Below, in pieces: positions 21,455 through 63,935 of a stretch of DNA of 64,000 bases (position 1 is the first letter of the stretch; each line of letters begins with the position of its first letter). The translations under genes were made by a program, and so were the position numbers. Location of the stretch: IMG/VR virus record IMGVR_UViG_3300045988_062648, positions 1-64,000 of that record. The stretch is one strand, 5' to 3'. Under the pieces are notes generated by a model. The model was given only the letters and a program-made list of their open reading frames with translations, searched no databases and was not told the origin of the DNA. This stretch comes from a virus.

Positions 21455-21485
21455 CATACTTCGCCAATTTGCCTATTTCTTTTGC

Positions 21486-21510: not shown

Positions 21511-21570
21511 TGAACAACATATCAGCTAAGTCATGTGAAACGGCTGACGGGCTTTAAAATGGGTCGGTCA

Positions 21571-21596
21571 CTACCACCCCCGTAGAAGAGATGATA
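21571..21596 (-). repeat. dispersed motif copy (reverse): ctaccacccccgtagaagagatgata
   Basis: reverse complement tctcttctacgggggtggtag; inverted partner of 21425-21454. Confidence 0.75.
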
Positions 21597-25647: not shown

Positions 25648-25675
25648 AGCAATACAACCCCCGTAGAGAAAGGTC
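25648..25675 (-). repeat. dispersed motif copy (reverse, slightly degenerate): tagcaatacaacccccgtagagaaaggt
   Basis: reverse complement cctttctctacgggggttgtattgcta; partner of 25781-25812. Confidence 0.7.
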
Positions 25676-25780
25676 GTTAATGTGTGTTTCTGTTAAGATT
25701 GCATCTAATTTAGTTTGTTTCATAGTTAAAAGGTTAGTAATAAAGTAGGTGAAGCTAATAGTGATATTCGCTAATCCATC

Positions 25781-25812
25781 AACTCTTCTACGGGGGTTGT
25801 AGTTTCCAACTT
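25781..25812 (+). repeat. dispersed motif copy (forward, subtype A): aactcttctacgggggttgtagtttccaactt
   Basis: perfect core plus extended TTGTAGnnTCCAACTT tail; 40 nt upstream of ATG 25854. Confidence 0.8.
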
Positions 25813-32209: not shown

Positions 32210-35200
32210 ATGAGTAATCGTAGAAGTCTTAAATGTGGTGGTAGACAAAAACTTGCTTGTGGTGGTAGACGTAAAGCATCGACTGGACTAGCAATAGGAT
32301 TGTCAGCTCTTAATAGTTTAGGAAGTATGATTGGTGGAATAGTATCTGCTAATGCTCAACGCAAAGCTATACAAGAATATAATGACCAACAAAGAGTAAA
32401 TAATCAAATAGCAAGTTCTAATAATTTAGCTGCTTCTGTAAATAGAAATATAGCTAGCAATAGAAATCTAAATAATTTTAATTTAGATGAATATATTGTT
32501 TATAAATACGGAGGCAAAACTCGTCCTAAGTGTAGTTTTGGAACTGTATTCGCTAATATAACTAAAGGTATTAACACATTTGCTCCTTTAGCAACTTCTT
32601 TAGCTGCTGCTGGAAGTACTGCCCCTACAAGTATTGGTACGTCTCTTCAACAAGATCTTATAAATAATGCTACTGATGCTAATATATTACGTCAAGCTGC
32701 CACACAAACATTTAAATGTGGTGGTCGTAAGAAAGCTCGTAGCGGTATAGCTAGAAGACTTGAAAGTCCTTATATTACAGATGGAGGAGTAGCTATTCCT
32801 CTTGGCAACGGATTATCTCTTCTACGGGGGGCGACACATGAGGACATCAATGAAACAGGTCAGACCGGTATTGGTATTAATACAGGTAAAGGAGAGATAG
32901 AAGCTGAAAATGGAGAAGTAATACAAAATACTGGTAAAGAACTTCGTATTTTTAGTGACCAACCAATATTTAATGGTATTAGCCCTGCTGATGCAGTTCA
33001 AGCTGGTTATAATCCTAATCGAGTATTTAATGCTCAAGAAAGAGTTAAAAGCAGACTTGGTATTAAAAATCCTAGTAAGAAAGCTCCTTGGGGAGATAAT
33101 GTAGATATACAAGAGTCAGATGCTACTAGAACTTATGCTACTCCATTTAATGAACGTGGACGTAGAACTTCTTATGCTGATAGTTATCAAGGATGGTTTG
33201 ATCCAGTTAGTTATCTTACTGGTAGTGCATTTACTATTGCAGATTATTATTCTACTAGACGTAGAGGTGAAACTCCTGAAGAATGGGCTGAGCGTCAAGC
33301 AGTAGAAGCACAATATCGTTCTACAGGTTATGCACCTAATGTTGGCTTTCGGGGAGGAATGGGTAGAAATGCAGTACAACGTGCAGCTACTACTAGATAT
33401 GCTAATCAAGTTAGAGGACAACAAATTAGACAAACAGGTAGATATAATAGAAATCAATTACTTTCTCAACAACTTGGAGAAGCAGCTCAAGCTAGAACTG
33501 CACAAGGTGCTAGACAAATTTCTAATAAAATACGAGTTAAAAGAGCAGGACAAGAATGGACTAATGCTGCTGAAACTCCTTATGCTCCTTATGCTGGTGC
33601 TGCTGAGAGCCGTGGTGTTGCTTATCCGTATGAGAATGCAGTTGGTACATTAAATCTACCTAATGCTAGAGCTGAACGTATTAGAACTTCTATTAATAGA
33701 AGAATACAAAATGCTAAAAATAGAATAAATCAACGTAGACAAAATAATACAAATAACAATAATACTAATAACACAGAAACTAATAATTCTAATAATCAAA
33801 ATGAAAGTTGGATTAGAAGAACTAGTCGTAAAGCAGCAAATACAGCTAAGACTTATGGTAAATATGGAGCTATGGGAGTTGGAGTAGGTGGACTTATTAC
33901 AGGTGCTATAGCTCTTGGAAATAGAGAAAGTATTAATACAGCAGGTACTAATAGAAATTCTAATAATCAACAAGCTGCTAGACGTAATACTTCTTCTCAG
34001 CAAAATAATAATCAACAAGCTGCTAAACCTACTAGAAGTCTTAAAGATATAGCTCGAGAAACAAATGCTGTTGTTAATCAAGACTTTTTATCTCTTAATC
34101 AACGTAATTTAATATATGGTGCTATTAATGTAGGAAATAAAAGAAATAATAATTCTAAAAAATCTCGTGGTAATAGAACTACTAGAGCTAACAGAAATAC
34201 ATCTAAACGAAATACAACTTCACGTAGAAGTCTTAAAGATATTGCTCGTTTTACTATTCCTAATTATATTCCTACTCCTACTAGAACTACTATAAGACGT
34301 GCTCAATCTGTTTATGATTTAGGTTTAACTAATGAACAAATAGATAGACTTAAAGAAGAAATTACTCAAATTCCATCTAGACCTAGAAAACGTTTTAGTG
34401 GACGTAGCACTACAACCCCCGTAGAAAGGATTGGTAGACCTAGATTTGTTATTGGAGGTTCTAATGCTTATGATTATACTAATCAATTTCTTAATAGTAT
34501 AGCTCCTGCTAGAGTAGTGGATAATAGACCTATTTGGCAAAGAAGTAATTTTAGTCTTCCACAAGTAGCTAATCAAATTACAGGACAATCTGCAAACAAT
34601 ACATCAGTAACATCTACAAATACAAATACTTCACCTACATTTAATGTTAGAAGTAATAATCTTGGAATGGATATAACTGGTAGAGATTGGATTGGTTTGG
34701 GTACTGATATACTTGGTAGTCTTGGTGTTGGTTTATTTAATGCTAATTCTTTAAAAGGGTTAGATGTTAATTATACTATTCCGCAATATGTAGATGAAAC
34801 TCCTGTAGCATTTGATACTACTTGGCATAATGGAGCACAGCGTGCTAATGTAGAACGTAATCGTATTAATGCTCGTAATATAATTGGACGTAATACAGCT
34901 TCAGCTAATACAGCGGTTCAACGTATGCAACAAAGTGATACTGACGCTATGATGCAACAGAATGTTCTTTGGGACGAAAAAGCTAATAAAGAAGCTGAAC
35001 TTAGAAATACTGCTGCTGCAAATGAACAACAAGTTCGTGCTAGAAATGCTGCTGCTAGAAATGCTTATTATCAGAATGTTGCACAAATACGAAATGCTGA
35101 ACAAGATGCTAGAAATAATATTAGACTTGCACAAGCTAATGCGATAAGTGGAAGTCTTGCAGGTTTAGGTCAAGCTGCATCTAACTTCTTAACTTCTGCT

Positions 35201-36739: not shown

Positions 36740-38677
36740 ATGTTACCATTTAACCAAATAGATAGAAGTAAAATTGAACAATATAGAGATAATTTTGATT
36801 ATAATGGTCTAGCAGATTATCTCTCACAATTTTATGTAGAAGATGCACAAAGACAAAAAGAATATTTAGATTATATTCGTCAATATAGAAGTCAAGGTAA
36901 TAAATTCAAAGGAATAATGGATAGAGCTAATGATGACCAAAAGCAAGCTATTCAATTTCAAATGGGTTTACAAAATAATAGACTACCTAAAACTTTTATT
37001 AATAGTCTAGGTCAAGAACAAGAGAATAGATTTACTAAAGATTATGTTAGTAAACTAAATAATATGGGAGGTGAAGATAGTACTACTCTTGAGTTTATGC
37101 TTGAGGGTAAGACTGTTGAAACTAAAGGTTTATTTGGTATTAATTGGTGGAAAGGTAATGACATTCAATATAAAGATAGTGGATTTGATTTATTTAGTAA
37201 AGGTACAGGATATACAGAACAAGACCTTATGAATATGGGAGTACAAGTTACTCACAAAGATGGTCAAACTATTCTTACTGTGGCTAAAGATAATCCTAAT
37301 ATTGCTAATATTTTTATGGGTATGCAATACGTTAATACTAATAGAAGTACAGACGATATTAGAAATCCTATGGATGCTAATCAAGAAGGAGAAGCTAGAT
37401 ATAAAGTTCGTGGTCTTGATGCAGATGGTAACCCAGTTCAAGTTGGAGCTTCAATAGATTTTACTCCAGATAATACTATAGCAGCTACAAGAAATTCTGA
37501 TAGTATTCCAGGTTTTCTTTATAATACTGTAGTTGGTACAGGTGAAGCAATTGGTAGAACACTACGACAAGTAGCTGGTGGTATTGGAGACATATTTAGT
37601 TCTAATCAAAGAGATTGGGAAGAAGATCAATTTAATAATCCAAAGAATATTTACACATACGATACTAATACTAATCCATATACTACACTTCGTGAAGCTC
37701 AAAGTATTTATAATAATTTTATGAATTCTGATGTTGATAATACTCAAGTATCTTATGAAATAACTGGTTTAGCTGTTAATGGAGCTGCTAGAGCACAATT
37801 AGAACAACGAAGACAAGCTGGTCTTATTAGTAATGAAGATTATCAAAAAGCTCTTAATAACCTTAATGATAGTTATAAATTAGCTCTTAATCAGTCTCTT
37901 CATAATTATAGAGTATGGTCTAATATAGATAATGACGATAGTGATGACCAAGCACTTTATGAACTCAATACAGAACAAAGAGTAGATGCAGCAGAACAAT
38001 TACATCTTGATATTAATCGTGATGATGCTGTATTTATGCACGCAATGATGGGCAATAAAGTAGGTACAATGATTGTTATTCCTGGTCAAAAGAATAAAGA
38101 TGGAACAGTTAAAGAAAATACTGAACGTCGTTATTTTATTGAAGACTTTATGAAAGATGAAGCAGAAGCTGCATTTAGACGAGATACTAAAACTCGTGCT
38201 CAAATGGAACTTTCAGATATGCAAACATATAAATACAATTATGATATACCTGAAGTTGGAACTATTAAAAATGTAAATGGAGCTAGTGCAGTTCTTGAAC
38301 ATCAAGATGGAAGTGAACAACTTATAGATAGACAAACAGCTCTTGATTATCTTAATAGAGCTATGATATATCAAGACGCAATAGACATGGCTAATCAAAA
38401 CTATTGGTACGATAATGGTGTTAGCAGAGATTATACTAATCTTAAAAATGATGTTAATACTTGGTCGCAACTTAGTATGGCTGAAATATATCCTACAGCA
38501 TGGCAAAGATATATAGAAGCATTACAAAGAGCTGGAGTTAGAACACCAAATCTTGATGATAATACTCCACTTGATGAACAAGGAGAAAATGATAGACTTT
38601 ATCTTAGAACTCTTAAAAATCAAATGGCAGCTTATATTCTTCGTTCTGTAGGTTATAACTTTAATAATGTTGAATAA
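36740..38677 (+). CDS. hypothetical virion protein
   Basis: 645-aa ORF; its TAA stop overlaps the ATG of the next giant ORF (TAATG). Confidence 0.4.
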   Translation: MLPFNQIDRSKIEQYRDNFDYNGLADYLSQFYVEDAQRQKEYLDYIRQYRSQGNKFKGIMDRANDDQKQAIQFQMGLQNNRLPKTFINSLGQEQENRFTKDYVSKLNNMGGEDSTTLEFMLEGKTVETKGLFGINWWKGNDIQYKDSGFDLFSKGTGYTEQDLMNMGVQVTHKDGQTILTVAKDNPNIANIFMGMQYVNTNRSTDDIRNPMDANQEGEARYKVRGLDADGNPVQVGASIDFTPDNTIAATRNSDSIPGFLYNTVVGTGEAIGRTLRQVAGGIGDIFSSNQRDWEEDQFNNPKNIYTYDTNTNPYTTLREAQSIYNNFMNSDVDNTQVSYEITGLAVNGAARAQLEQRRQAGLISNEDYQKALNNLNDSYKLALNQSLHNYRVWSNIDNDDSDDQALYELNTEQRVDAAEQLHLDINRDDAVFMHAMMGNKVGTMIVIPGQKNKDGTVKENTERRYFIEDFMKDEAEAAFRRDTKTRAQMELSDMQTYKYNYDIPEVGTIKNVNGASAVLEHQDGSEQLIDRQTALDYLNRAMIYQDAIDMANQNYWYDNGVSRDYTNLKNDVNTWSQLSMAEIYPTAWQRYIEALQRAGVRTPNLDDNTPLDEQGENDRLYLRTLKNQMAAYILRSVGYNFNNVE

Positions 38678-41600
38678 TGAATACTGAACTTATATTTTCA
38701 CAAGGTGGTGTAGAAGTTCCTAATCCAGCTTATAATTCTCGTAGTAAAAAACGAGGAGTTTCTCCTACTATAATAGTTCCTGATGCTTCTCAAGCAAGTT
38801 CTATGGCAGATATTGCTTATAGAACTAATCCTGCTCTTTATGGTCAGTATGATTATGCTGATGTAAAAAAGTATTATGGTGAAGGTTTAATGCCTAATAA
38901 AATATCGCCAAATCTAGATGTAGAGCTTGCAGAAGCACAAAGTGGTATAAAAAAGTTTGGTAATGCTTTAGCACAAACACTTGTATCAGAAATAGCTTTA
39001 GGCACTGTAATAGGTATAACAGATTTACTTGATGTAGTAGGAAATGCTATAAGTATGAATACTAATAATGATTATCAAAATCCTATTAGTAGAACTCTTA
39101 CTGAATGGCAAGAAAAATTTAGAAATGAAGTTGCTCCTATTTATACAGACCCAACTAAAAATATAGCTAACGGTGGTTTACTTGATATGGGTTGGTGGGC
39201 TAGTAATATTCCAAGTATTGCTAGTTCACTTACTTTGCTTATTCCATCAACAGGTGTAACAAAAGGACTTTCAGCACTTTCTAAATCTACTAATATAGGT
39301 GCTTATACTAGAACTGCCGTTAGAGCTGCAACTAAAAAACTTGGTAATAAAAGTTTATATAGAGCGGCTAATCGTCCATCTACTATTACAGCTTGGAATA
39401 GAGGAATAGAATTAGGTATTAATGCTGGACTTCAACGTACAATGGAAAACTATCAAGAAGCTAGACAAGTTTATAATGATAGTTTAGAAGATAGTATTAA
39501 TACTCTTCAAAATATGTCTCCCGAAGATTATCAGAATATGCTTCAACGTAATGCTGATATGTTTGAAGGAGTCGATACAAGTAATATACAAGAAGTAGCT
39601 AAAGCTATTGCTCGTAGAGCTTCTGATAGAACATTTGCTATGGACTTTGCTAATATTGGTTTTGACGTTATGCAACTTTATGCTCTTAGAAATGTTTTTG
39701 GCAATAACAGATTAGCTAATGTTGGTAGAGCTTCTGCTCGTAGAGCAAATAGACTTAGTATTAAATATGCAGGTAAAAGTCAAGCTGAAATAGATAAACT
39801 TGAAGCAGCAAGACCTTGGAGAGAAAGAACTTTAGATAATATAAAAGATTATGCTATAGGTAGCGGTTATGCTATTAAAGCTCAACTTAGTGAAGGTGTT
39901 GAAGAAGCTGTTAACTATATTGCTCAAGAAGAAGGTATGAGTCTAGGTCGAACTATTCTTGGTAAAGAGAATCCAAGTAGTTTTGATTATAGACTTAAAC
40001 AATACATGTTTGCTCCTCAACTTTGGGAAAGTGCATTTTGGGGTACACTTGGTGGAGTAACATTTCAAGCTGCTGGTAGTGGTTTAATGCGAGTAGCAAA
40101 TACTATTAAAAAAGGAACAGAGGTTGACCCTATTACAGGAGAACGTAGACAGAATGTTGCTTGGGCTGGTCTTAGTATGCTTCCTGAAGTAGAAAGACGA
40201 GTTAAAGATATTGAATCTCGTAATATTAAAATGGGACAACTTGCAGAACTTATTAAGACTATTGATAAAGACCATAAAAATCCTTTTCAAAGAAATGCTG
40301 ATGGAAGTTTTGTTGATATACCTAATAAGATTGATCAAGATGCAGCTAAAGAACTAGCTATTAATGAATTTGTTACTGATATTGCTTTACAAGCTAATAA
40401 CAATGGTAATTATGAAGCTACAAGAGAATATCTTGCTGACGATAACGTTAGACAAGCTATGGTTCAAGCTGGTATAGTAGATGAAGCTAGTTCTAAAGAA
40501 TGGCAACAAAGTGTTCTTAGAAAGTATGACCAAGTTAAAGAACAATATGAAAATGAGTTGTTTAAACTAGATGATTTAGCAGCTACTAGTAACGTTAAAG
40601 GAAGAGTTCCTATTGAATTTCTACAGAATGCTGCAACATTTAATGTTCAAACTAAACTTAATATTGCTAATTTAAGGTCTCAACAAAGTGCTTATACAGA
40701 GCAATACAATAAAGCTAAAGCTGATGCTATAGAAAATGGTAAACTAGATGCTACTTATGATTATGATTCTATTATAAAGCTGTCCACTATTGTTAGTGGA
40801 CTTAATGCTTTATATCAACAAAGAAAAGAAATACAAGATGATATAAAACAAAATGGTGCTACTGTTGCTAAACAAATAAGTCTTGATGAAATTAATAAAC
40901 GTATAACTAAACTTCAAAAAGACTTTTATATAGATAATAGTACTAATCAACTTGTATCTCTTCTTGCTGGTCTTAGTTCTATTTATAATAGTAGAGCTAG
41001 AAACGAAGAAATAGATAAAAATCTAGAAAAAGCTCTTAATGATGCTTTACAAAATAATAAGTTTGGTGGTATAGAAACTTTGCTAGGTCTTGAGCCTGAT
41101 ACTATAACAGTATCAGAAGAAGAACATAAAAATATAGTTAATGCTTATAATAAATTTAATAAAGAATTTATTAATAGAACAGAGGGCAAACAAGGTATTA
41201 ATCAAATTGGTAAACAAAATGTAGAAGCACTTTCTAATGCTATTGCTCTTGGTTATACTATAGCTAATCAACAATCTCAAGTTATAGATACTCAATCTGA
41301 TTTAGATTATTATCTTAATATGATGAACAATAGTATGGATGAAGCTAGAAGAAATGCTATTGAAGAATCATATAATACTATAAGAGAACTTAATAAGAAA
41401 TATGGTCGTAGAAGTATTGAAGAAGCTCTAGCTCTTGCTTATCAAGGAAAATCTTCTTTAGAAGCTCTTGATGATTATGAAGAAGGAGATAGAAATAATC
41501 TTAATAGAGCTATTAAAATTCTTAATCTTACTAGTGCGCCTAACCGAATACTTTATGATGATATTCAAGCACTACTTGATATAGAGGATAAACTTAGTGC

Positions 41601-44600
41601 TGATAGACGTGCTAATACAGAAGTATTATCTACCACAAATCAAAATCCCGTACAATCGACTGAAACCTCGCAGACGAACAATCCATCAGCTGTCACGTCC
41701 GAAACGCCCACAGCGCAAGCAAATAGGCAAAACGGCAATGTTCCGCCAACTCAAACACCATCTCAAACGGCTACATCAGAGCCAATAAATGTTCGTGTTG
41801 GTACTCGCAGTGGTAATCCTTTTATTACTGCAATAAGTGATACAGGAGCACAAAATCAAAATGGTACACTTGTTCCTACAACAGTAGCTGGTCGTTATAG
41901 ACTGCAAACACAAGAAGAACAAATACTTAATAATGATAATTTCTATGATAAAGAGAATGGTGTTTCTGTTATAGATGGTGATTATAAAATTACTCAAGAA
42001 CCAATAGTCATACTTGATAATGATGGAAAATATGTTATAGAAGAGAAAGGATTATTGAGTAAAGTAAATGACGAGAAGCCCCCCGTAGAAGATAACGGTG
42101 GAACTCAACAAGGTGGAAACTCTTTTCAAGATGCTATTAGAGATAAAGAAACTCAACAAGGTGTAGTACAACAAAGTCAAGACGATGCAACCTCTTCTAC
42201 GGGGGGCGAGAGTCAAGTAGATAGTTTTATCCCAGTAGAAGATTTAAGTCAAGCTGTAGCTGCTAGAATGACTGATATCAATGTTCTTGACTCAAATCTT
42301 GATTTAGACGCTAAAGCTCAACAATATAAAGAACAACTTAATCCTGAAGAATTTGGTGTTACAAGAGAAGAACTTGATAGAGTTATAGATGAACGTATAG
42401 CTGGTTTTAAACAACTTAAAGAACATCTTGCTACACTTCAAAATCCTCAAGCTCAAGCTGCTACTGGAATAGCTTTTGCAGCTAGACTTATGGAACCTAC
42501 TAGTAATGTATTTTCATTAATGTTTGCTAGTAGTATGTCTAGTTTTGTTCAAGAATATGCTAAGTCAATGATTATACCAAAGACTACAGATGGTCGTTAT
42601 GTAATTAATCTTAGGTCTTTTCTTAGACAGCTTAGAGACGCTCTTGGCTCAAATAATAAAGATGTTATTCTTCCTATATATCGTCAAATTAAAACTTATT
42701 TCCTTAGTGCTGACGGTAAAGCAAATTATGTACTTGATAATTATGAAACGTTACTTGATGATAGTGTATTAGATAATCTTGATAAGTCTGTAGAACAAAT
42801 CAGACAAGAACAAAATAATAATGTAACGACATTAAGAGTAAATATTAATGACTTTATAGAAGCAGCCAATAACGTTTACGATGATGCTAGACGTCAAGAA
42901 TACTTTAATGTTCTTGATAATCTTAAAGTTGGAGATAAACTTACTCTTAGAACTCTCGATGGTTACATAGAAGTATCTAAAGGAAATGTAGTAGTAGGTA
43001 ATATGTCTATTGCTAAAGTTACTCCTGATGGTAGATATTATGTATATAATGAAGGTTGGAGAGAAGATGTTAATATTGGTTCTAATGGACAAATTATAAG
43101 TGATGCTAAACAAATAATAGAAGATATATTTACAGGACAGTCTGTAAATCATACTAGTCTTCGTAAAATTATTACTGATGCCATTACTGCTAGAGATATT
43201 TCAAAAAATCTAGTTAATCGTTTTGCAGCTAATCCTATTATAAATGATTTAGCTAATCGTTCTAGAGGAGAACAAGCTGGAGAAAGAATATTCTTTGTAG
43301 ATGATAAGACAGGTCTTATTGACTATGATAGAATACTTCGTCATCTTGTAAAACTTTGGAATTATTCTTTTGTTAGTAATAAATCAATAGTAACAAATGA
43401 TGATATAAAAGCTAGTCTTAATAATTGGTATGAAAAACTTTATCATACTTATAATAATATTAATTATCTAGCTCAACAACAAGATGTTACTGTTAGTTAC
43501 ATGAATGAAGGAGCTATTAATAGAAAAGTAGAAAATGATACAGCTAATGCTTATGAACAATTTGAATATGCTTCAAATGGTATTGCTGATTTATCTCAAG
43601 CTGCTCTTGGAATAACTGCTCCCATAACTAATACAATGGTAATATCAGGACATAATGGAGAATCTTCTACATGGAGTGCTGGTAGTACAGTTGTAGCTAT
43701 TTATAGTAGAAATACTAAACCTGATTTTGTTAAAGCTTATGGTCTTAGACTTACAACAGATGAAATGAAGCAAAATGCTACATTTAAAGCTATGAATGAT
43801 GCTATGCAGAATAGACTTATTTCTATTATAAATAGTTTAATAAGTAATAATTCTGATGAAAACTTTAGTAAACTTGTAGATACTATAACGTCCATTCTAG
43901 CTTGTAGAAATTTTACTGATTACGTAAATCCTAAGACTAAAGTTCCAATATATAGAGCTATGTCTGGAAGATTCCAAATTAGACCTGTTACTTATAGAAA
44001 TACTCCTAATATTAAAGGTATTGATATAATATATACAAGTCCTGATGGTCGAATGAGTAACTTCCATATTTATAATCATGGTGCTAATAGACCTCAAATA
44101 GGTTATAAACCGGCTAATACAAACAGATTTGTATTTACTGATACTGATAGTACTATTACTGGTTCTAGGATAGCTACTGATTTTATGAACTTTATAGCTC
44201 CTTATGTAAACTTTAATATAGCTCAGGCTGGTATAGCTCTTGATAATAATCCTAATGCTGATTATGCTGGTTTTATAACTCATAAAAACGGAAAAGTAGT
44301 TGTTAATATTCCAACAGAAGATAATACAATTGGATTTAATGAAGAATATGATAGTTATAGTCAATTTGTTCTTAGTAATAATCTAGTCAAAGTTAATACT
44401 TTTGTTGGTCAAAATGGTAAGAACTTTAGTTATCAAAATGGAAATCAACGTGCTAATCAAGTTCTTTATGTAGATAGTGAGTTGGGAACTACAACCCCCG
44501 TAGAAGAAACGAGATATATTAATTCTAACTCTGATGCAGCTCTTAATCAACAAGTTTATGATATACTTAACTCTAATGAGCCAACTAGTAATACAGGAGA

Positions 44601-45738
44601 ACGTATATTCCAAGCTATTAAAGGTAATAAACAACAAATAGAAATTCCTCATATAACAGATGATGAAGGAAATGTTATAAGTTTATTCCCAGCTGATATT
44701 AGGTTTGAACCTAAGATGAATGATAGACAAGATAGTCGAGGAGTAATAGCTTATACTACAAGTGATAAAAACCATAGGCATATTTATGTTTATAATAGTC
44801 CTACTGATAAAAATTCTGCTCGTGTTGGAAGAGCTGTTGGTAAAGTTTATGTAGGAACTAAATGGCTTAATATGATAAGTAGTAATAATGAAGCTGTTAG
44901 AAATGTAGCTATTTCTAAACTTATTCATGAACGTTTACATTTACTTATACATGATGCAAAATATGCTGCAAAAGCTCCTAAACTTTATTCTGATATTGCT
45001 CCTATATATGAAGAATTTTGGAAACAAGTAAATAATATTCGACAAGATGCTAATGCAGATGCTACTCTTAAAGAACTTGCTAATCATGCTGTAACTACTT
45101 TCCAACCTTATTTCAATACAGAAGCAAGTACTAGAAATGATGAAGCTGCTCATAATAGAGCAACACAAGTATTATATGAAGAGTTTATAGTTGAAAGTCT
45201 TACTAATAGTGCTTTCCTTAATCTTCTTAATGCTATGGAGGCTACAGAAGAAATAAGTAGAGGCAAACAAAATCTGCTTAGTAGAATTATTGATGCTATA
45301 CTTAATTTCCTTGGTATTACTGATAAAATAAATAAAGGTAGTCTTCTTGAACAACAAATTAATACTTTAGCTAATTCATTTAATAATGATGATGTATTAC
45401 CGCCAAATGTCAATAAAGATATTGAACAAAGTGTTTCTCAGGAAATTGAAAATGATGTTAACGAAGTACAAGAAACACAAGAAGTAAGTAATAAGGAAGA
45501 AGATACTTTAACTTCTGATGAACAAGATGATGCCGATGTATTTGACGAAGAAGGAGATGATTATGAAGATGTAGATGACAATGCTAATGCTGCTAATATA
45601 GCTGAACCAATTCTTCCAGTAAGTGAAGAAATAAGTATTTCGTCAATCGACTACTTTAGCCGCCAGCTCCCTGGGATAAGCCAACGCCAATTTAGGGCAA
45701 TGATTGACCGTGGTGACGTTAATTTCCGATGCAGGTAG
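38677..45738 (+). CDS. giant virion (cargo-type) protein
   Basis: 2353-aa uninterrupted ORF; contains four dispersed-motif copies, a GC-rich Thr/Pro/Gln linker (about 41640-41800), HERLH motif and acidic C-terminal tail. Confidence 0.5.
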   Translation: MNTELIFSQGGVEVPNPAYNSRSKKRGVSPTIIVPDASQASSMADIAYRTNPALYGQYDYADVKKYYGEGLMPNKISPNLDVELAEAQSGIKKFGNALAQTLVSEIALGTVIGITDLLDVVGNAISMNTNNDYQNPISRTLTEWQEKFRNEVAPIYTDPTKNIANGGLLDMGWWASNIPSIASSLTLLIPSTGVTKGLSALSKSTNIGAYTRTAVRAATKKLGNKSLYRAANRPSTITAWNRGIELGINAGLQRTMENYQEARQVYNDSLEDSINTLQNMSPEDYQNMLQRNADMFEGVDTSNIQEVAKAIARRASDRTFAMDFANIGFDVMQLYALRNVFGNNRLANVGRASARRANRLSIKYAGKSQAEIDKLEAARPWRERTLDNIKDYAIGSGYAIKAQLSEGVEEAVNYIAQEEGMSLGRTILGKENPSSFDYRLKQYMFAPQLWESAFWGTLGGVTFQAAGSGLMRVANTIKKGTEVDPITGERRQNVAWAGLSMLPEVERRVKDIESRNIKMGQLAELIKTIDKDHKNPFQRNADGSFVDIPNKIDQDAAKELAINEFVTDIALQANNNGNYEATREYLADDNVRQAMVQAGIVDEASSKEWQQSVLRKYDQVKEQYENELFKLDDLAATSNVKGRVPIEFLQNAATFNVQTKLNIANLRSQQSAYTEQYNKAKADAIENGKLDATYDYDSIIKLSTIVSGLNALYQQRKEIQDDIKQNGATVAKQISLDEINKRITKLQKDFYIDNSTNQLVSLLAGLSSIYNSRARNEEIDKNLEKALNDALQNNKFGGIETLLGLEPDTITVSEEEHKNIVNAYNKFNKEFINRTEGKQGINQIGKQNVEALSNAIALGYTIANQQSQVIDTQSDLDYYLNMMNNSMDEARRNAIEESYNTIRELNKKYGRRSIEEALALAYQGKSSLEALDDYEEGDRNNLNRAIKILNLTSAPNRILYDDIQALLDIEDKLSADRRANTEVLSTTNQNPVQSTETSQTNNPSAVTSETPTAQANRQNGNVPPTQTPSQTATSEPINVRVGTRSGNPFITAISDTGAQNQNGTLVPTTVAGRYRLQTQEEQILNNDNFYDKENGVSVIDGDYKITQEPIVILDNDGKYVIEEKGLLSKVNDEKPPVEDNGGTQQGGNSFQDAIRDKETQQGVVQQSQDDATSSTGGESQVDSFIPVEDLSQAVAARMTDINVLDSNLDLDAKAQQYKEQLNPEEFGVTREELDRVIDERIAGFKQLKEHLATLQNPQAQAATGIAFAARLMEPTSNVFSLMFASSMSSFVQEYAKSMIIPKTTDGRYVINLRSFLRQLRDALGSNNKDVILPIYRQIKTYFLSADGKANYVLDNYETLLDDSVLDNLDKSVEQIRQEQNNNVTTLRVNINDFIEAANNVYDDARRQEYFNVLDNLKVGDKLTLRTLDGYIEVSKGNVVVGNMSIAKVTPDGRYYVYNEGWREDVNIGSNGQIISDAKQIIEDIFTGQSVNHTSLRKIITDAITARDISKNLVNRFAANPIINDLANRSRGEQAGERIFFVDDKTGLIDYDRILRHLVKLWNYSFVSNKSIVTNDDIKASLNNWYEKLYHTYNNINYLAQQQDVTVSYMNEGAINRKVENDTANAYEQFEYASNGIADLSQAALGITAPITNTMVISGHNGESSTWSAGSTVVAIYSRNTKPDFVKAYGLRLTTDEMKQNATFKAMNDAMQNRLISIINSLISNNSDENFSKLVDTITSILACRNFTDYVNPKTKVPIYRAMSGRFQIRPVTYRNTPNIKGIDIIYTSPDGRMSNFHIYNHGANRPQIGYKPANTNRFVFTDTDSTITGSRIATDFMNFIAPYVNFNIAQAGIALDNNPNADYAGFITHKNGKVVVNIPTEDNTIGFNEEYDSYSQFVLSNNLVKVNTFVGQNGKNFSYQNGNQRANQVLYVDSELGTTTPVEETRYINSNSDAALNQQVYDILNSNEPTSNTGERIFQAIKGNKQQIEIPHITDDEGNVISLFPADIRFEPKMNDRQDSRGVIAYTTSDKNHRHIYVYNSPTDKNSARVGRAVGKVYVGTKWLNMISSNNEAVRNVAISKLIHERLHLLIHDAKYAAKAPKLYSDIAPIYEEFWKQVNNIRQDANADATLKELANHAVTTFQPYFNTEASTRNDEAAHNRATQVLYEEFIVESLTNSAFLNLLNAMEATEEISRGKQNLLSRIIDAILNFLGITDKINKGSLLEQQINTLANSFNNDDVLPPNVNKDIEQSVSQEIENDVNEVQETQEVSNKEEDTLTSDEQDDADVFDEEGDDYEDVDDNANAANIAEPILPVSEEISISSIDYFSRQLPGISQRQFRAMIDRGDVNFRCR
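42075..42099 (-). repeat. dispersed motif copy (reverse): gaagccccccgtagaagataacggt
   Basis: inside giant CDS (KPPVEDNG); inverted partner of 42189-42217 about 110 nt downstream. Confidence 0.7.
42189..42217 (+). repeat. dispersed motif copy (forward, subtype B): aacctcttctacggggggcgagagtcaag
   Basis: inside giant CDS (SSTGGESQ); GGGC-GAGA-G(T/C)CC mini-hairpin possible. Confidence 0.75.
44481..44511 (-). repeat. dispersed motif copy (reverse, extended): gttgggaactacaacccccgtagaagaaacg
   Basis: inside giant CDS (LGTTTPVEETR); reverse complement tcttctacgggggttgtagttcccaac matches full subtype A consensus. Confidence 0.8.
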
Positions 45739-45796
45739 AATACGTCCACTTTTAATTTTGAACCGCTTAAAATCGAATTTAAAATATATAATAACT

Positions 45797-48700: not shown

Positions 48701-51700
48701 GGTAGTATTAAATTTGAAGCTAAAACTTATCGTCCTGTATTTAAACCTGGAGTTAAAGATACAGATGGTTATAGATTTTATGACCTTGGAAAGAATGGAA
48801 GTGTAATTGAAGCATCTAAAACTGGTAATATTTCACATTATAGACTTGGAGGTAATGTATTTAAAAGTAATAAATTTACTGTAAAAGAACTTGGAGATGA
48901 TAATGTGCTACGTAAAGTCAATTATATGGAAGATATATTTGACGATAGTATTAATAGCACAGGAGCTGATGGTCGCATCAACCTTCTCTACGGGGGGCGA
49001 GAGTCCAAACTTAATATTGTTCGTAGTGATACTGGCTTAGTCACAGATGTTCAACTTACAGAAGCACAACAAGAAAGAGCTATTAATAATATAGTTAATT
49101 TCCTTAATAGTTACTTTACGCAAGCACAAGAAGAAGTTGCTAATTTTAATAATTTTGTTAAAGGTGTTCCAACTACTATAGATGCTGTTGTAGATTTTGC
49201 TGCTAATCAACTCATTACTCATTATGCTTATGATGACATATTTGAAGGTGGAGTAAAGTTCTATGCTGATGCTCAAACTGTACTTAAACGTGCTAAAGAA
49301 GTACAAGGTAGTGGAGTATCTTATGGTATTGTTGATTTTAATGATTCAAATATAGCTGATTTATATGATATTCCAAATGCTTATCTTAATAATGGTAAGT
49401 ATTCAGATTATACTAAAGAACAATATATTGGTGAAGATGGTAAACGTCATACTAAAGAAGTTCCTAGAACTAGAACTATTCAAGAAGTATTTGCTGGTAC
49501 TGAACTTGCTGGTATAACACAACGTAATGGCTGGCGAGCAGTTACTATTGAAAATAGTAAAAACACAAACTTTGCAGCACTTAAAGAACTTACAGGCGTT
49601 CTTGTTAAAGCAGGAATGAGTGAAGAAAATGCTAAAAATCTTCTTTATGGTCCTGTTGTAACAGATAAAAATGGTAATCCTATTTATGATAAAAATGGAC
49701 TAGAAAAACATAAAGGTGGTTATCAAGATACTAAAGTTAATGATGCACAGTCTTATATAACATTTAAAGAATGGGTTAGAAGAATAGCTGCAAGAGGTCA
49801 ACTTAAACGTTATATGCCACTTATTGAGAAACTTCTTGATCCAAATGCTGTACTTACTGATAATGACCTTAATGAATTTGTACAAGTTCAAAAGAATTTC
49901 TATTATGATTTACATTATGATAGTAGTTTTAATCGTTTTGTTCCTCGTCAAATTAAAAATGCAGAGTTTGTATTAGTTCCTCGTTTTATTAAAGGAACTC
50001 AACTTGAACGAGTCGCTCAAATGATGGAAGAAGCTAATATAGACCAGCTTAATACAGTTGAAACTAGTAAGGCTTCTAATCGTCATGTACTTACTCTTTG
50101 GGATAATGATGGAGAAATAAGTGAAGAACGTTATCAAAACTTTGCTAAAGAAGCAAAAGGAGTGGCTGAGATTTATTATTATAAATATCTTTATACTCAA
50201 CAAGAAACTCCGCAACATGTTAATACTACTAATAAAGCAGGTATTCAAATAGTCAAAAAGATGATTGATAATCTTGCTCAAGATGACCCTAATAAACTTC
50301 AATTCTTTGCTAATTATGTAGCTAATATTGAAGAAAGTTGGAGAAATCTTCTTGATAAACTTGATGTACCTCGTGATGAAAATGGTAATATACTTACTAA
50401 TCAAGATGGTCAAATACTAGGTATTAATAAAAAAGTTCTTTATGAAAGATTTAAAGAAGAACTTTATCGTACTGGCATTAATAGTAATATACTCGATTTT
50501 GTAACTCTTGATGAAACTACAAATCAACCTATTGCTCCTGCTATTAGCAATCTAGTTCTTGATAAAATAGAAACTACTCATCAAGCTATTTATAATAGTA
50601 AGATTACAAGACAGAAACTTCCTGGTTTCCATGCAGCGCAAGTAACTAATATTGGTTGGAAGAGATTAGATAATGGTGAAAGTAAATATTGTCTGAAAAC
50701 TAATGCTAATGTAATTATAAGTAAAGAAGAGTTTAATAATCTTGATGAAACAGAGAAAAAGAAATACCGTAACACACAAGTACAATATGATGGTAGCTTA
50801 CGTTATCATCCTAATGGAGAAGGTTATATTGAAGTAAAACTTACTTATAGTGCTTTAGGTATCAATAAAAATGATCCTCACTATATAGGAATGACTAATG
50901 CTGAAATCATTAAAGAACTTGAAGAACAAGGACTTGATAAAATTATTGGTTATCGTATTCCTACAGAAGGTAAACAATCAGTAGCTGTAATGAAAGTTGT
51001 AGACTTTATAGATGATGGTCTTGGTTCAACTATTGTAGTTCCTAATGATTGGGTTAGTCAAACTGGTTCTGACTTTGATATTGACTCTGTATATGGTATA
51101 ACTTTCGATACTCATAGAGGAAAAGGCGGCAAACTTATTAAAGCTAAATTTGTTGATGGAGATAATTATACTATTTCTGATTGGATTAATTATATAAAGA
51201 ATTATGCTGATAGAAATGCCAAAGGTTATGTTCGTCCTAAAATAAAACAAATTATAGATGCTATTAATAGTTCTGAACAAGAAGAATTTGTTAGTCTTAG
51301 AGCACAAGAAGATGAAGCATTTAAAAAATTTATTTCTGCTATACCTGAACAAAGTAGAGGTAAAATGGTAAATAGATTTAAGAATGAGGCTAAACGAATA
51401 AGAACTGCACTTGATGGAGCTAGTAATAAAGAAATATGGTCAGCTCAACTTGAAAAATATATTCAAATAGCTAGTGATCTTAAAGCTAAACTTAAAAATG
51501 CAAATACTATTGCATCTATAGATGAATTTATTTCTTCTTGTGATGATATACTTAATTTCCTTAATAATCAAGATGGAAGATTTGAACGAAAGAAAGATGC
51601 AGCTCTTGCTGAAGAAGAACAAAAACGTATAGATAAGTACAATGAAATAGCTAAAGAAGCTGGGCTTCTTACATTTGATGAATATTTTGATGCACTTGAC

Positions 51701-54700
51701 GCAGCTAAAACTCCAGAAGATTTTGCTAAACTTAATACCCGTCATGCTAGAAATAATGCTATTGTTCAATCTATGCTTAATATACTTCAAGATGTAAAGA
51801 ATCTTGAAGAAAATCTTTCTCGTTCTAATTCAGATGATATAGAAGCTAGTATAGATAAATGTCTTGGGGATAATGCTAAAGCTGAACGAGAAAATCGTAG
51901 CCAGTATAATGTATTTGACGAAATGCGTTATCAAGAAGAAGCTATGAGTGGTGCTGTCCTTAAAGGTGCTAGCGTATTTATGGATAGTGTATGTTCTATA
52001 TGTAATGTTGTTAAACCTACACTTCGTGGTGGTGTTAAAGTTTCTTATGATACTAAATTTTATAATCAAGAAGAAATTACCAAACGTTACGGTTTAAATA
52101 AAAATGATATTAGTAAAGGACGTATTCGTGTAGTACATAATCAATATGGCTGGAGTTCAGATAATAGAAATGTTATTGGACGACTTATAACACCTTATAG
52201 TTCAGAAACTACAGCTTATATTCTTGATGCTATCAAGAAAGGTGCTATGCCAAATGTTAATCAATTTACTTTCCCAGTTCTTAAACATTTGGTTAATCTT
52301 GGTATAGATTATGATACTGCTATATCATTTATGGCAAATCCTGCTATAAGTACAATAATACGTAATAATAATAGATTTAATTCTATTTATAGTAATGAGT
52401 TTGGAAATGCTATTCATGAAAGTATTAACGAAATAGCTCGTCAACTTGGTATAAAAGTAGATGAAAAAACACCTGTAATAAGTGTTCTTGCTTCTGTTCA
52501 ATCTAAGTTTGGCGATGTTATTAATAAGATATTTAAAGTAGATAAAGAAGACGTTAAATTTAGTCTTGAAGAAGAAGCTGCTGCTACTCTTGCTTTAATG
52601 CCTGATAAACTTATAGCAAGACTTAAAGATAATGGTATCTTTGGCACTACAACCCCCGTAGAAGAGAAGTTGATATTTGACTTAGGTAATATACTTATCT
52701 TTAATAGACTTCGTAATCAAGCACAAGAAATAGGTGGAGTAGCAACTGCTCTTAATCCAGATAAGTTTGGTGCTAAAATGAGTCTTTTTGCTACTAATCA
52801 AATATTTGATAAAATACTTGGACAAATATATACTGATAGTAGTTATGTAGAAGAAAGAACAGACCCTATTCTTAGTATTAATGGAGAACATATACTTAAA
52901 AGTATTTATCCAGGTATTACAGGAGACCCAGAAAATAGTATAGAACCTGGAGTTCCAGCAATGCTTAGAGCAGATATTAGTAAAAGTACTTATCCATCTC
53001 TTGCAGCATTTCTTAAATATGCTACAGCTACTTCTTCTGTAATTGCTAAACAAGTTCTTCTTACTCAACATCCAGCTTTTATTCGTTTTTGTAACGGACT
53101 TGCAACTAAGTTTAGTGATGTTGTACAAGAAATGGACGAAAAGCAATATAATGATTTTCAAAAGTATGCTATTAGTTATTTCTACAATAATGTAGAAAGT
53201 ATTAGGCGTCCAATTGTACCAGTCAAAAACGAAGATGGTACTTATAGTTATAATATAGATAATAGCGATACTCCAGACAATGCTACTATTTCAATAGAAG
53301 ATGCAGAACGTGAACGAGTATTTGGTTATAATAGAGTTCCAGCTTTATCTATAGTTGAAAAAGTACAAGTTACTAGAAATGGTAAAACTATTAATAAGAC
53401 TGTTACTCGTCCAATAGAAATAGAAAATCTTAATCATCCAACTCAAGAAGAACTCAATGATTTTGCTCAATTTAGTCCTGCACAAAAAGTTAAGTTTATT
53501 AAAACTCATTTTGATGATGCAGGAGTGTTCGATTATATTGATGTTCAACTTTATAATCCTACAATAAGAGGTTGGAGAACTGGTATGCAAACTCTTGAAT
53601 ATCTTGAATCTAACGTTGGTGACAATGTTATATTTAATATGTTCTATGAAGCATATAATAATCGTAATCCTCTTGTTGCTATGGCTGCTAGAGATGTAAT
53701 TAAATATGCAATACAAGTTGAAGGTTATCGTATGCGTCAAACTGCTGCTGGTAAAGTTATTAGTAATAAACCTCTTAATACTGGTTATGAAGAAGGTGGA
53801 ATGAATTTCTTTGCAGAAGTTGCTGAAATGTTTTCTACTATTGGTACAACAGGTAGTGCTATATTTGAACAAACTAGTATGGATGAAATATATGAGAGAT
53901 ATTTTAGAAGTCATATAGATAATCCTCATATTAAATCATTTAGACTTACTAATTCAAGTATGATTAAGTTTAATATTCATACTCGTAGTTACGATATGCT
54001 TGTAATGGAGAAAAAGTATGATGAAACTTCTGATGATGATAAAATAGCTAAAGAGTTTAATAATAATTGTGCTAAAGCAGGAATTAAAACTTATCATCCA
54101 GCTTCTAATACATATACTACAAATAATTATCTTAGAGTATATCGTGATAAAAAAGTTGTATTATATAAAATAAAAGATCTTGGTGATAAAGTTATACTTT
54201 ATCCTCTTAATAAACTTCAACCTAATGAAACTACTGAATGGTCAGCTAATGATAATAATAATGAATATCCTAATAAAATAACTTATGAAGGTATTATTCA
54301 TGATTATCAAAAACAACTTTTTAATGATGCTGCATTACAATTTACTAGTGGTTGGATAAAAGAAAGTAATAATGCTAGAAAACAAAATGGTGAAAATCCT
54401 GTAGTTTATTATAAGCATCGTAGAGATTATAGCAATCAAGCAGCTACAGTTGATTTCAATCTTGATAAACTTGCTAATGAACAAGGAGGTGCTTTAGCAC
54501 AAGCTCGTGAACAAATTAGAAGTAATTTTGAACGACTTAATGCTAAACATCTTTATATGCGTAATGCTGCTCTTGGTAATTATATATTTGTTCCAGGTTT
54601 TGAAAATGCTAGTAAGCAAACTATTACAATGAGAAATGGAGCTAAAAGTACATTCCTTATTGCAAAAGTAGATACAGACAGAAGTAGAACAAATAAACGT

Positions 54701-60046: not shown

Positions 60047-60073
60047 GTTGGGATATACAACCCCCGTAGAAGA
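60043..60073 (-). repeat. dispersed motif copy (reverse, extended): aagttgggatatacaacccccgtagaagagg
   Basis: starts inside stop codon of giant ORF; reverse complement cctcttctacgggggttgtatatcccaactt is the full subtype A consensus. Confidence 0.8.
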
Positions 60074-63745: not shown

Positions 63746-63775
63746 CTTGGGATATTAAACCCCCGTAGAAGAGTG
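63746..63775 (-). repeat. dispersed motif copy (reverse): cttgggatattaaacccccgtagaagagtg
   Basis: reverse complement ctcttctacgggggtttaatatcccaag; partner of 63901-63935. Confidence 0.7.
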
Positions 63776-63900
63776 TACATCGTAGCCTTACTTTGGTAAA
63801 AAGTTCAATCATCATTTGTTTCAAAAGCATATTCACTCTATCTAACTCTATTTTGTCTAGTACCAATATCACTACTATCTAGACTAAGACTACAACATCT

Positions 63901-63935
63901 CATTTCTTCTACGGGGGTTGTGTATCCCGACTTAC
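63901..63935 (+). repeat. dispersed motif copy (forward, subtype A): catttcttctacgggggttgtgtatcccgacttac
   Basis: intergenic, 130 nt downstream of its inverted partner. Confidence 0.75.

Follow-up and report, generated by a model that had tools for sequence, protein, structure and literature searches.

Dispersed short recognition sites are known from several bacterial and phage genomes. REP elements of enterobacteria and pseudomonads, including their BIME and REPIN arrangements, are short, GC-rich repeats, found either singly or as inverted doublets around a short spacer. They are over-represented in intergenic DNA and often switch orientation from one copy to the next, and host proteins (gyrase, IHF) bind them. 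Rickettsia palindromic elements are repeat-bounded short segments that sit in frame within an intact ORF, in surface or disordered regions of the protein. Among phages, those of mycobacteriophage cluster A carry 20-35 stoperators per genome, asymmetric sites of the 13-nt class that lie mostly in short intergenic gaps, also in genes, and vary in concert with the phage-encoded protein binding them. Promoters of the T7/T3/SP6 type measure about 23 nt, are repeated 10-20 times at fairly even distances, are highly conserved within each genome and, from genus to genus, co-vary with the phage enzyme. Finally, the virion nick consensus of T5, phiKMV-like and tf-like phages is a dispersed, asymmetric 10-20-nt sequence found at a handful to about 15 positions irrespective of coding.

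Here, we describe a motif that resembles each of these systems in several of the features just listed and differs from each in others. It was analysed in a 64,000-nt stretch of viral DNA (positions 1 to 64,000 of IMG/VR record IMGVR_UViG_3300045988_062648; hereafter, the window) from a crAss-like gut phage of the Intestiviridae (alpha-crAss). While REPs are imperfect palindromes, strictly extragenic, mobilised by RAYTs and variable between strains, the crAss motif unit is non-palindromic, more than half of its copies lie inside ORFs, at deeply conserved positions, and its carrier is a 90-95 kb phage of lytic type. Rickettsia elements have homologous bodies of 100-150 bp that are sporadically present or absent among orthologues, whereas the crAss sites share just arms of 13-15 nt, their spacers are unrelated, and the right arm at the locus described below is ancestral. 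Stoperators follow the direction of transcription and are the targets of an immunity repressor; the crAss motif, in contrast, is independent of gene orientation, with many copies conserved in giant ORFs. T7-type promoters all face the direction of transcription upstream of genes, yet half of the crAss copies are antisense and many reside in ORFs; besides, no T7-like polymerase is annotated here. Known phage nick motifs are unrelated in sequence to the crAss motif and, in T5 and phiKMV, occupy one strand only. Searches by exact sequence and by topic found no description of the motif in the open-access subset of the literature, and it is not described in the phi14:2 RNAP preprint, the Crassvirales review, the C. 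communis phage-plasmid preprint, Yutin 2021 or the crAss002 paper.

The locus at the centre of this study lies within an ORF for a 2353-aa virion protein, which, from synteny and its HExxH signature, is probably the counterpart of p-crAssphage gp45, an RNAP-associated protein fused to a zincin protease. A Pfam search of both giant ORFs returned only a sub-threshold EAD5 match. Two 15-nt arms, GCCCCCCGTAGAAGA and, on the top strand, TCTTCTACGGGGGGC, are exact reverse complements (15/15; repeat finder and sequence), are both in frame and leave a gap of 100 nt (Table 1). The first-pass annotation had already reported this inverted pair and its peptides, KPPVEDNG and SSTGGESQ, and in this it was right; its separation of 90 nt applies to the wider, 24-nt peptide-coding blocks rather than to the arms, and its coordinates were off by one at either end (42076-42099 and 42193-42216 being correct). 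The 34 codons enclosed by the arms encode DNGGTQQGGNSFQDAIRDKETQQGVVQQSQDDAT, and the spacer contains a 14-nt direct repeat, AACTCAACAAGGTG, at 42102-42115 and 42150-42163. That repeat, a third, degenerate direct copy of the motif (TCCCAGTAGAAGAT) at 42230-42243 and the greater age and conservation of the right arm were absent from the earlier description.

Table 1. Motif copies and associated features, in window coordinates (inverted pairs are given with the strand of each copy).
Feature	Position	Strand	Detail
Close intergenic inverted pair	567..605	567-581 (-), 593-605 (+)	593-605 degenerate
Copy upstream of terminase gene	3917..3931	-	
Copy near N-terminus of gene upstream of major capsid gene	9593..9607	-	PSTGG; exact orthologue in cr271_1 gp19
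Intergenic copy	15149..15163	-	24 nt past stop codon
Intergenic inverted pair	21427..21589	21427-21441 (-), 21575-21589 (+)	133-nt spacer
Intergenic inverted pair	25658..25798	25658-25670 (+), 25784-25798 (-)	plus-strand copy is variant GTAGAGAA
Copy in folded conserved beta-domain, ORF 32210-35449	32818..32832	-	LLRG
Copy in ORF 32210-35449	34416..34428	+	TTTPVER
2353-aa virion 'giant' ORF	38677..45738	+	C-terminal HExxH invariant
Predicted disordered inter-domain linker, aa 1132-1188	42070..42240	+	pLDDT, alignment, identity islands
Left arm, sense copy GCCCCCCGTAGAAGA	42078..42092	+	(K)PPVED
Spacer of 100 nt, Gln/Gly-rich coding	42093..42192	+	holds 14-nt direct repeat
Right arm, antisense copy, top strand TCTTCTACGGGGGGC	42193..42207	-	SSTGG; ancient conserved site of the locus
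Third direct copy, degenerate, TCCCAGTAGAAGAT	42230..42243	+	IPVED; 92% to 42081-42093; right edge of exchanged block
Copy in 2353-aa ORF, low-confidence loop	44493..44507	+	TTTPVEE; model residues 936-945 pLDDT <50
Copy in 4780-aa vRNAP-like ORF	48984..48998	-	LLYGG (third frame)
Copy in 4780-aa ORF	52651..52665	+	TTTPVEE; orthologous to cr271_1 position 59062
Intergenic copy	60059..60073	+	13 nt past 4780-aa ORF stop; orthologous to cr271_1 position 66209
Intergenic inverted pair, minus-strand gene module	63758..63919	63758-63772 (+), 63905-63919 (-)	

We interpret the pair as two adjacent, opposed copies of a dispersed DNA motif, together with a third, degenerate direct copy, that are maintained by selection at the nucleotide level and probably serve as double-stranded-DNA sites for a co-evolving phage factor (rough probability 0.55). 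The motif has the core CCCCCGTAGAAGA, which in intergenic copies extends to about 30 nt (aGTTGGGAnnTACAACCCCCGTAGAAGAGgTTGAt). There are 16-18 copies in the window, one per about 4-5 kb on either strand; at up to three mismatches to the 15-mer, 16 were observed against 0.09 expected from shuffles. Every one of the 18 runs of at least five C or G in the 64-kb window falls within a motif copy, and shuffles predict about 7 such runs. C5 is thus avoided in the rest of the window. The corresponding fractions are 17/18 in cr271_1 and 15/19 in p-crAssphage. A general avoidance of G/C homopolymers could explain part of this exclusivity.

Conservation in relatives places the constraint on the nucleotides. 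In the giant ORF, the right-arm codons TCT TCT ACG GGG GGx are identical in six of seven orthologues, down to 33% protein identity, and the arm is present in all seven at the DNA level. The left arm is intact in the window phage and the relatives L125 and L127, carries one mismatch in L126 and L118, and has decayed in L116 and L117. Judged by these alignments, the right arm predates the left by far and is the better conserved of the two. L116, L117 and L118, whose proteins are 33-41% identical, likewise retain orthologous motif positions: the copy at 44493 recurs in all three and in cr271_1, and the variant GTAGAGAA at 48984 is also found at the orthologous site of L116 and L118. A megablast search of 40000-46000 against the phage collection gave no match, nor did a search of IMG/VR for relatives with the linker region as the query.

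The peptides could in principle be what is conserved, for instance if SSTGG and PVEE were where a maturation protease cuts virion cargo proteins. S-T-G is (nearly) invariant across 50 homologues in an otherwise unalignable linker, and the protein itself has a zincin HExxH domain. However, antisense coding copies read one nucleotide string in three frames (SSTGG, LLRG and L/F-YGG; sense copies yield PVEE), other copies lie in non-coding spacers, and synonymous positions are fixed on the least-used codons (GGG 2.2%, ACG 2.3%, CGG 0.5%, TAC 5.9%). Given the SSTGG peptide, codon frequencies put the chance of TCT TCT ACG GGG GGC at about 3e-6. Orthologous positions, three reading frames, rarest codons and intergenic copies together indicate selection on nucleotides. 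Peptide-level conservation is therefore refuted as the primary cause, and we regard it as highly improbable, though the forced peptide may have been put to secondary use.

The first-pass annotation viewed the pair as a cassette bounded by inverted repeats, possibly a tolerated insertion. A miniature inverted-repeat element of the Rickettsia palindromic element or REPIN kind, inserted in frame in a tolerant linker, would account for a perfect 15-nt inverted repeat around a low-complexity segment in a disordered region, for close inverted doublets at several other loci and for the differing segment lengths of orthologues. This idea did not survive: the arms are two of the 16-18 dispersed copies, and the right arm, nucleotide-identical at 33% protein identity, is ancestral and hence not polymorphic for an insertion. 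Most copies are singlets at long-conserved orthologous positions, and the core is under purifying selection instead of decaying. No homologous body links the doublets, since the four doublets in the window have mutually unrelated spacers (11, 133, 100 and 132 nt) and blastn of the present spacer against the window returned the self-match only. A transposase or RAYT-like gene likewise did not come to notice in those annotations of relatives that were read. Altogether, an inserted element is largely refuted and very unlikely. Perfect inverted repeats around a short segment would also suit an invertible switch, in which a site-specific recombinase flips the segment and alters or truncates the giant protein. 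Invertible DNA is, besides, common in Bacteroidales and in the phages that infect them. Yet the flipped segment has four in-frame stop codons, and none of the roughly 26 homologues whose alignment spans the linker carries the flipped allele. Distant orthologues, moreover, can do without the left arm, and the motif also occurs genome-wide as singlets, so that a switch is hardly tenable.

Beyond the window phage, variants of the motif are present in all four other Intestiviridae genomes examined (cr271_1, ctcc615, crAss002 and p-crAssphage) and, across genera, include GTAGAAGA, GTAGAGGA and rTArAGGA, the 5' flank varying as well. Within each genome the copies vary in concert, reading TACAA-C5-GTAGAAGAG in the window phage, AGCT-C5-GTAGAAGA in cr271_1, GAC-C5-GTAGAGGATGGA in p-crAssphage and ATT-C5-rTArAGGAG in crAss002, as would be expected if they co-evolved with a trans-acting factor. 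By tblastn, the site in cr271_1 gp19 maps exactly to the copy at 9593; antisense copies at a similar relative position (aa 66-86) occur in crAss002 gp11 and p-crAssphage gp75, these two being placed by annotated-gene coordinates, which tblastn mapping did not confirm. In crAss001 (Steigviridae), the motif is absent from the first 50 kb scanned. When viral contigs were scanned for exact 14-mers, most matches were single ones of the kind expected by chance, and several contigs of roughly 90 kb carried 3-5 copies. With over-representation, positional orthology, synonymous conservation and concerted variants all observed, we class the motif, on the sequence evidence, as a putative dispersed cis-acting recognition motif. 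Since the flanks of the core do not keep their inverted-repeat potential from genus to genus, it would be the linear sequence that is recognised.

A signal in transcription or RNA is possible, though rather improbable in our estimate. The motif could act as a promoter-like start, or as a terminator or processing site for a phage-specific polymerase (e.g. the adjacent giant virion RNAP), or paired copies could form hairpins that stabilise or process polycistronic transcripts. In line with this, 32% of copies lie in intergenic DNA, which makes up 5-10% of the sequence (about 4-fold enrichment), and many of these are found 6-33 nt past stop codons. Size (about 25-30 nt) and concerted variation recall the co-variation of T7-group promoters and polymerases, and the 3' half of the motif, GTAGAAGAG, appears similar to the start region of the SP6 promoter, TATAGAAGAG. 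The arms of the pair are predicted to base-pair (MFE -42.4 kcal/mol, z-score -3.1), with a 15-bp stem kept in the centroid structure. Internal signals could also help if crAss002 has just two transcription units, as is thought (PMC8042965). However, orientation relative to genes shows no preference in intergenic copies (17 sense, 13 antisense), and the 25 sense and 40 antisense coding copies match the 2:3 ratio expected from frame availability, as one sense frame contains TAG. Antisense copies are moreover conserved deep within ORFs of 7-14 kb, the doublets lack the following U-tract or T-run of a terminator, and the local hairpin potential of single copies is not conserved between genera. In Rfam 15, the only gathering-threshold match in the window was a tRNA-Gln at 60292, and 41800-42500 gave no match at E<=1.

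Several known sites were also considered and rejected. Hairpins or cruciforms of single copies would use CTAC/GTAG and GTTG/CAAC stems that exist here and are not conserved in cr271_1, p-crAssphage or crAss002. A Shine-Dalgarno-like purine half would suit the AAAGGAG of crAss002 but not the sequence of the window phage, and one copy in two is antisense. Resemblances to ops/RfaH, Chi, topoisomerase IB and IHF sites were set aside, either because the bases in common are not kept from genus to genus or because the copies break the orientation rule.

Copies are also spaced more evenly than chance, with a coefficient of variation of 0.38-0.63 in all five genomes; P values were 0.001 and 0.0008 in two genomes and marginal (0.065-0.098) in three, the five tests being non-independent through shared ancestry. 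Besides, crAss002 copies, which include an intergenic pair at 28707/28744, alternate in orientation at 24 of 29 transitions (P = 0.0003), which simple orientation-blind binding does not predict.

The linker that hosts the pair has a history of its own. In the AlphaFold2 model it joins a beta domain to a helical domain, with pLDDT 20-39 over aa 1132-1188 (model residues 132-188 all below 50), in keeping with the low-complexity linker proposed at first pass. Nearly all of the roughly 26 homologues aligned across it have the PVE...SSTGG peptides and vary in spacer length alone; the orthologue alignment that the first-pass annotation had called for thus shows differing segment lengths, with about 5 to 60 residues from PVE to SSTGG. 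Compared with L125, 42065-42246 is about 95% identical between flanks of about 72%, and compared with L126, 42083-42244 is about 75% identical, with indels, between flanks of 96-99%. These identity islands show that the linker block has been exchanged between lineages as a unit, independently of its flanks, and they bear out the earlier suggestion that recombination alters the linker without breaking the frame. The edges of the exchanged block coincide with the left arm and the third direct copy, not with the inverted right arm. Lineages have swapped this hypervariable, indel-prone linker by homologous recombination, for which the conserved motif copies would plausibly serve as the only identity patches.

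This raises the question of whether the copies exist as recombination linkers, that is, as identity patches or nuclease targets that let RecT, Gam and exonuclease exchange modules when diverged genomes co-infect a cell, the linker being one such module. In two independent comparisons, the history of the linker differs from that of both flanks, with edges at motif copies; four genomes show intense mosaicism, with 36 topology switches in 27 kb, and two of six motif loci (32818 and 44493) lie within 10 nt of a switch. Relatives also carry annotated RecT, Gam-like and PD-(D/E)XK nuclease genes. However, in this 27-kb four-genome comparison, breakpoints were not significantly nearer to motif loci than to random positions (P = 0.14-0.17), so a micro-homology role of the motif rests on one locus, and at such a density of breakpoints some should fall near motif loci by chance. 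Both orientations occur, moreover, and inverted copies cannot mediate simple exchange, and a core of 13-15 nt is short for RecT-type annealing. We consider this explanation unlikely.

Most likely, then, the motif is the double-stranded-DNA recognition site of a phage-encoded, co-evolving and sequence-specific protein, a reading whose mechanism we infer and to which a signal dependent on transcription direction, a peptide motif and a mobile element are all less likely alternatives. Such a protein would act along the whole chromosome, with the initiation of replication or recombination, site-specific nicking and genome organisation as candidate activities. In long ORFs, sites would settle where the protein tolerates the forced peptide, mostly in loops or disordered linkers, and occasional coding sites would use folds that already read LLRG or YGG. 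The first-pass annotation had proposed a disorder check of the copies and named folded conserved domains as evidence against its view. The pair at 42078/42193 and the copy at 44493 do lie in low-pLDDT regions; the copy at 32818, however, lies in strand E202-207 of a modelled domain of pLDDT 71-90, L204, L205, R206, G207 and H210 being invariant in 54 homologues and the codons CTT CTA CGG GGG being retained in six relatives. Copies thus also occur outside disordered regions, and the outcome in part goes against the first-pass view.

More specifically, but only tentatively, the motif might be an entry or recognition site for a crAss-specific DNA transaction that is needed regularly on both strands; the giant virion RNA-polymerase complex might, for example, prime or initiate there where DNA is locally melted, or packaged DNA might be nicked site-specifically. 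If so, the Intestiviridae would carry a previously unrecognised 'punctuation code' that dictates amino acids in their largest genes, and the alternating orientation in crAss002 would reflect sites functioning as inverted pairs.

In summary, the apparent cassette is an accident of two motif copies falling within one disordered linker. No other phages of the human gut are as abundant as the prototype crAssphage and its family, and to our knowledge very few of their signals for replication, transcription and packaging have been described. The motif is family-wide, roughly even in spacing and orientation-independent, and in virion RNA-polymerase genes it takes precedence over codon choice and even over the protein sequence. 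As the most conserved nucleotide string among diverged genomes, it may seed recombination as well as mis-assembly. The motif should offer a concrete handle for tracing a central DNA-binding or DNA-cutting activity in these phages.

The inverted pair proposed by the first-pass annotation within the 2353-aa giant ORF does exist. Its arms, GCCCCCCGTAGAAGA on the left and the perfect reverse complement on the right, are both in frame and encode (K)PPVED and SSTGG on either side of 34 codons rich in Gln, Gly and Asp. The annotated coordinates were one base out at either end, and the 90 nt of separation hold for wider blocks, the arms themselves lying 100 nt apart. A third copy, degenerate and direct, follows. 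The pair comprises two copies, next to a degenerate third, of a dispersed, anciently conserved nucleotide motif, and these copies occupy a disordered, recombinationally mobile linker. Pairing of the arms as RNA is predicted (minimum free energy -42.4 kcal/mol, z-score -3.1), as is inevitable for a perfect 15-nt inverted repeat; no Rfam family match was found. Within the linker there is also an exact 14-nt direct repeat, which suggests slippage duplication in a low-complexity stretch.

Allowing up to three mismatches, the 15-mer occurs 16 times in the window (0.09 expected), and a relaxed pattern recovers 18 copies. Dinucleotide shuffles predict about 7 runs of at least five C or G in 64 kb; all 18 runs present belong to motif copies, so C5 is enriched in the motif and avoided in the rest of the window. 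Intergenic and sense copies align to an extended consensus of roughly aGTTGGGAnnTACAACCCCCGTAGAAGAGgTTGAt, and most antisense coding copies are of a CTCTCGCCCCCCGTAGAAGAG subtype. Close inverted doublets recur in each relative as well. Intergenic spacers with a copy measure 59-212 nt, versus typically 6-33 nt for those without, indicating that the motif largely makes its own gap. One inverted pair encloses a non-coding spacer in an unusually long gap (212 nt) upstream of a tail-fibre-like gene.

Coordinates of the features discussed (nucleotide positions in the window)
Feature	Position	Detail
2353-aa giant ORF	38677-45738	
Left arm	42078-42092	GCCCCCCGTAGAAGA
Right arm	42193-42207	
Third copy	42230-42243	TCCCAGTAGAAGAT
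Direct repeat in linker	42102-42115; 42150-42163	AACTCAACAAGGTG (TQQG), 48 nt apart
Close inverted doublets	567/593; 21427/21575; 25658/25785; 42078/42193; 63758/63905	
Spacer inside inverted pair	21442-21574	133 nt
Coding copies shared with cr271_1	9593; 44493; 52651	
1010-aa ORF	21629-24661	collagen-like stretch, aa 370-450
1079-aa ORF	32210-35449	
Copy in folded domain	32818	encodes L204-G207
Hypervariable island	41334-41552	
HExxH	44926-44940	aa 2084-2088 of the 2353-aa protein
Listed TTG start, 4780-aa ORF	45704-45738	35 nt inside the end of the 2353-aa ORF
tRNA-Gln	60292-60363	anticodon TTG

The motif extends to other Intestiviridae, with 17-18 copies in cr271_1 (AGCT-CCCCC-GTAGAAGA), about 32 in p-crAssphage (GAC-(C/T)CCCC-GTAGAGGATGGA), 30 in crAss002 (ATT-CCCCC-rTArAGGAG) and 15-16, by strict pattern only, in ctcc615; it was not found in the first 50 kb of crAss001 (Steigviridae). 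Inside each genome one flank variant is common to all copies, as expected if a trans-acting partner co-evolves with this cis site. Three of the window's coding copies map exactly onto cr271_1 copies. For the copy in the gene that lies upstream of the capsid gene, crAss002 gp11 and p-crAssphage gp75 likewise hold an antisense copy at a comparable place, as judged by coordinates only, mapping having given no confirmation.

In the orthologous DNA of three distant relatives (L116, L117 and L118; giant protein 33-41% identical), the motif keeps its gene and its position but is read differently: as SSTGG in giant ORF 1 (phase 0), as LLRG in the homologue of the ORF at 32210 (phase 2), as L/F-YGG in giant ORF 2 (phase 1) and, in sense copies, as T/P-PVE-E/D. 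Its codons are the genome's rarest (GGG, 2.2% of Gly; ACG, 2.3% of Thr; CGG, 0.5% of Arg; TAC, 5.9% of Tyr). A peptide motif is ruled out as its identity by the several reading frames and the retention of the rarest codons. Codon-aware alignment of seven genomes shows an identical right arm (TCT TCT ACG GGG GGx) in six of them, even though the linker around it defies alignment. Only the window's own clade has kept the left arm intact, and in L116 and L117 it has decayed. Of the two arms, the right is therefore the ancient one, and the left is a neighbour that is younger or under less constraint. Judging by these comparisons, selection targets the nucleotides of the motif rather than the peptide.

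The main rival explanation, a transcription or RNA signal, is favoured by the enrichment of copies in intergenic DNA, which makes up 5-10% of the total and holds 32% of them across five sequences (the window, cr271_1, ctcc615, crAss002 and p-crAssphage). However, these copies follow no orientation rule, and antisense copies are conserved inside ORFs. Relative to the neighbouring gene, 17 intergenic copies are sense and 13 antisense; the 25 sense and 40 antisense coding copies match the 2:3 ratio expected because the motif carries TAG in one of three sense frames. Orientation relative to transcription is thus immaterial. In all five sequences, motif loci are spaced more evenly than random (coefficient of variation 0.38-0.63; P = 0.001 in the window, 0.0008 in p-crAssphage and 0.065-0.098 in cr271_1, ctcc615 and crAss002), against a null with close pairs merged exactly as in the data and with tests that are not independent, the genomes being related. 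Over the whole crAss002 genome (NC_055828.1; loci L124 and L128), neighbouring copies alternate in orientation (24/29 transitions, P = 0.0003), and 7 of 12 distances between convergent neighbours are 3.0-3.9 kb; the tendency to alternate is weak in p-crAssphage (21/31) and absent in the window.

As to the linker itself, the idea of a cassette bounded by inverted repeats was borne out only in part: the segment is disordered, length-variable and exchanged by recombination, while the inverted repeat is not its defining feature. In an AlphaFold2 model (aa 1001-2200, 49 homologues, mean pLDDT 74), pLDDT falls to 20-39 at aa 1132-1188 (nt 42070-42240), between beta-rich and helical domains, and a loop that was likewise modelled with low confidence holds the copy at 44493. 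Among homologues, the distance from PVE to SSTGG varies from ~5 to 60 residues. Compared with a closer relative, L125 (81% protein identity), positions 42065-42246 are ~95% identical in nucleotides and the flanks 71-75%; compared with another, L126, positions 42083-42244 are ~75% identical with indels and the flanks 96-99%. The linker therefore has its own history. The left edge of the exchanged block falls in the left arm and the right edge at the third, direct copy, not at the right arm. An invertible switch is excluded, as flipping 42078-42207 would give four in-frame stop codons. So is a mobile cassette: the spacer at 42093-42192 resembles neither the spacers of other doublets nor the rest of the window, and the motif is dispersed and anciently conserved. 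Nor are copies confined to disordered regions. The copy at 32818 in the 1079-aa ORF (CTT CTA CGG GGG, codons kept in six relatives) encodes residues that are invariant, along with H210, in 54 homologues and make up strand E202-207 in a folded domain (pLDDT 71-90).

Across 28677-55738, the best-supported four-taxon topology of the window, L125, L126 and L127 switches 36 times in 27 kb; recombination blocks average <1 kb, and these close relatives have genomes that are mosaic throughout. Motif loci were not significantly nearer to these switches than random points (P ~0.15, four genomes, 27 kb), so it is the linker locus alone that suggests the motif may cause recombination there. The giant ORF contains another short hypervariable island, this one free of motif copies, where L126 and L127 fall to 70-80% identity and L125 holds 93-96%.

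PHROG profiles recognised crAss-type large terminase, portal and major capsid genes in the window (30% G+C). Its capsid protein shares 88% identity with those of Intestiviridae MAGs (ctcc615, cr271_1) and 66% with that of Carjivirus communis, the prototype crAssphage. Genes lie on the + strand up to ~60 kb, and the two giant ORFs close the late module. Given synteny and an invariant C-terminal HExxH, the 2353-aa and 4780-aa ORFs are probably the counterparts of p-crAssphage gp45 (an RNAP-associated protein with a zincin protease) and gp44 (virion RNAP), respectively; the HExxH is invariant in 50 homologues and fits the gp45 annotation. In relatives, a 40-80-nt gap separates the two giant genes, so the true start of the 4780-aa ORF is probably further downstream than listed. 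A tRNA-Gln directly follows the late module where two gene modules converge, as annotated likewise in cr271_1. The collagen-like stretch of the 1010-aa ORF matches many tail-fibre PHROGs. The N-terminal ~260 aa of the 1079-aa protein are common to hundreds of crAss-like proteins of 595-1673 aa (~50% identity); with its conserved C-terminal coiled region and hypervariable middle, its architecture resembles that of a receptor-binding or tail protein with swappable modules.

On the most economical reading, the motif is a candidate site that a co-evolving factor, encoded by the phage, recognises in double-stranded DNA. This is favoured by its independence of gene direction, its fairly regular occurrence across both gene modules, the conservation of linear sequence rather than structure, the concerted variation of flanks per genome and the avoidance of stray C5 runs. 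Such a factor would act on copies along the whole chromosome, perhaps in initiation of replication or recombination, site-specific nicking or genome organisation, and where a site is required inside an ORF of 7-14 kb, the protein would have to make room for it, most often in a loop or linker. The nearest analogues (REP/BIME/REPIN repeats, Rickettsia palindromic elements, cluster-A mycobacteriophage stoperators, T7-type promoters and phage nick-site consensus sequences) all have some features in common with the motif, but every one fails on at least one defining feature, by the tests made here or by what is established about these systems. We found no description of it in the accessible literature, by exact sequence or in crAss papers, which does not prove novelty. 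What underlies the pair is more interesting than the cassette as first noted: a family-wide, roughly evenly spaced and orientation-independent motif of crAssphage genomes that takes precedence over codon usage and even over the sequence of proteins.
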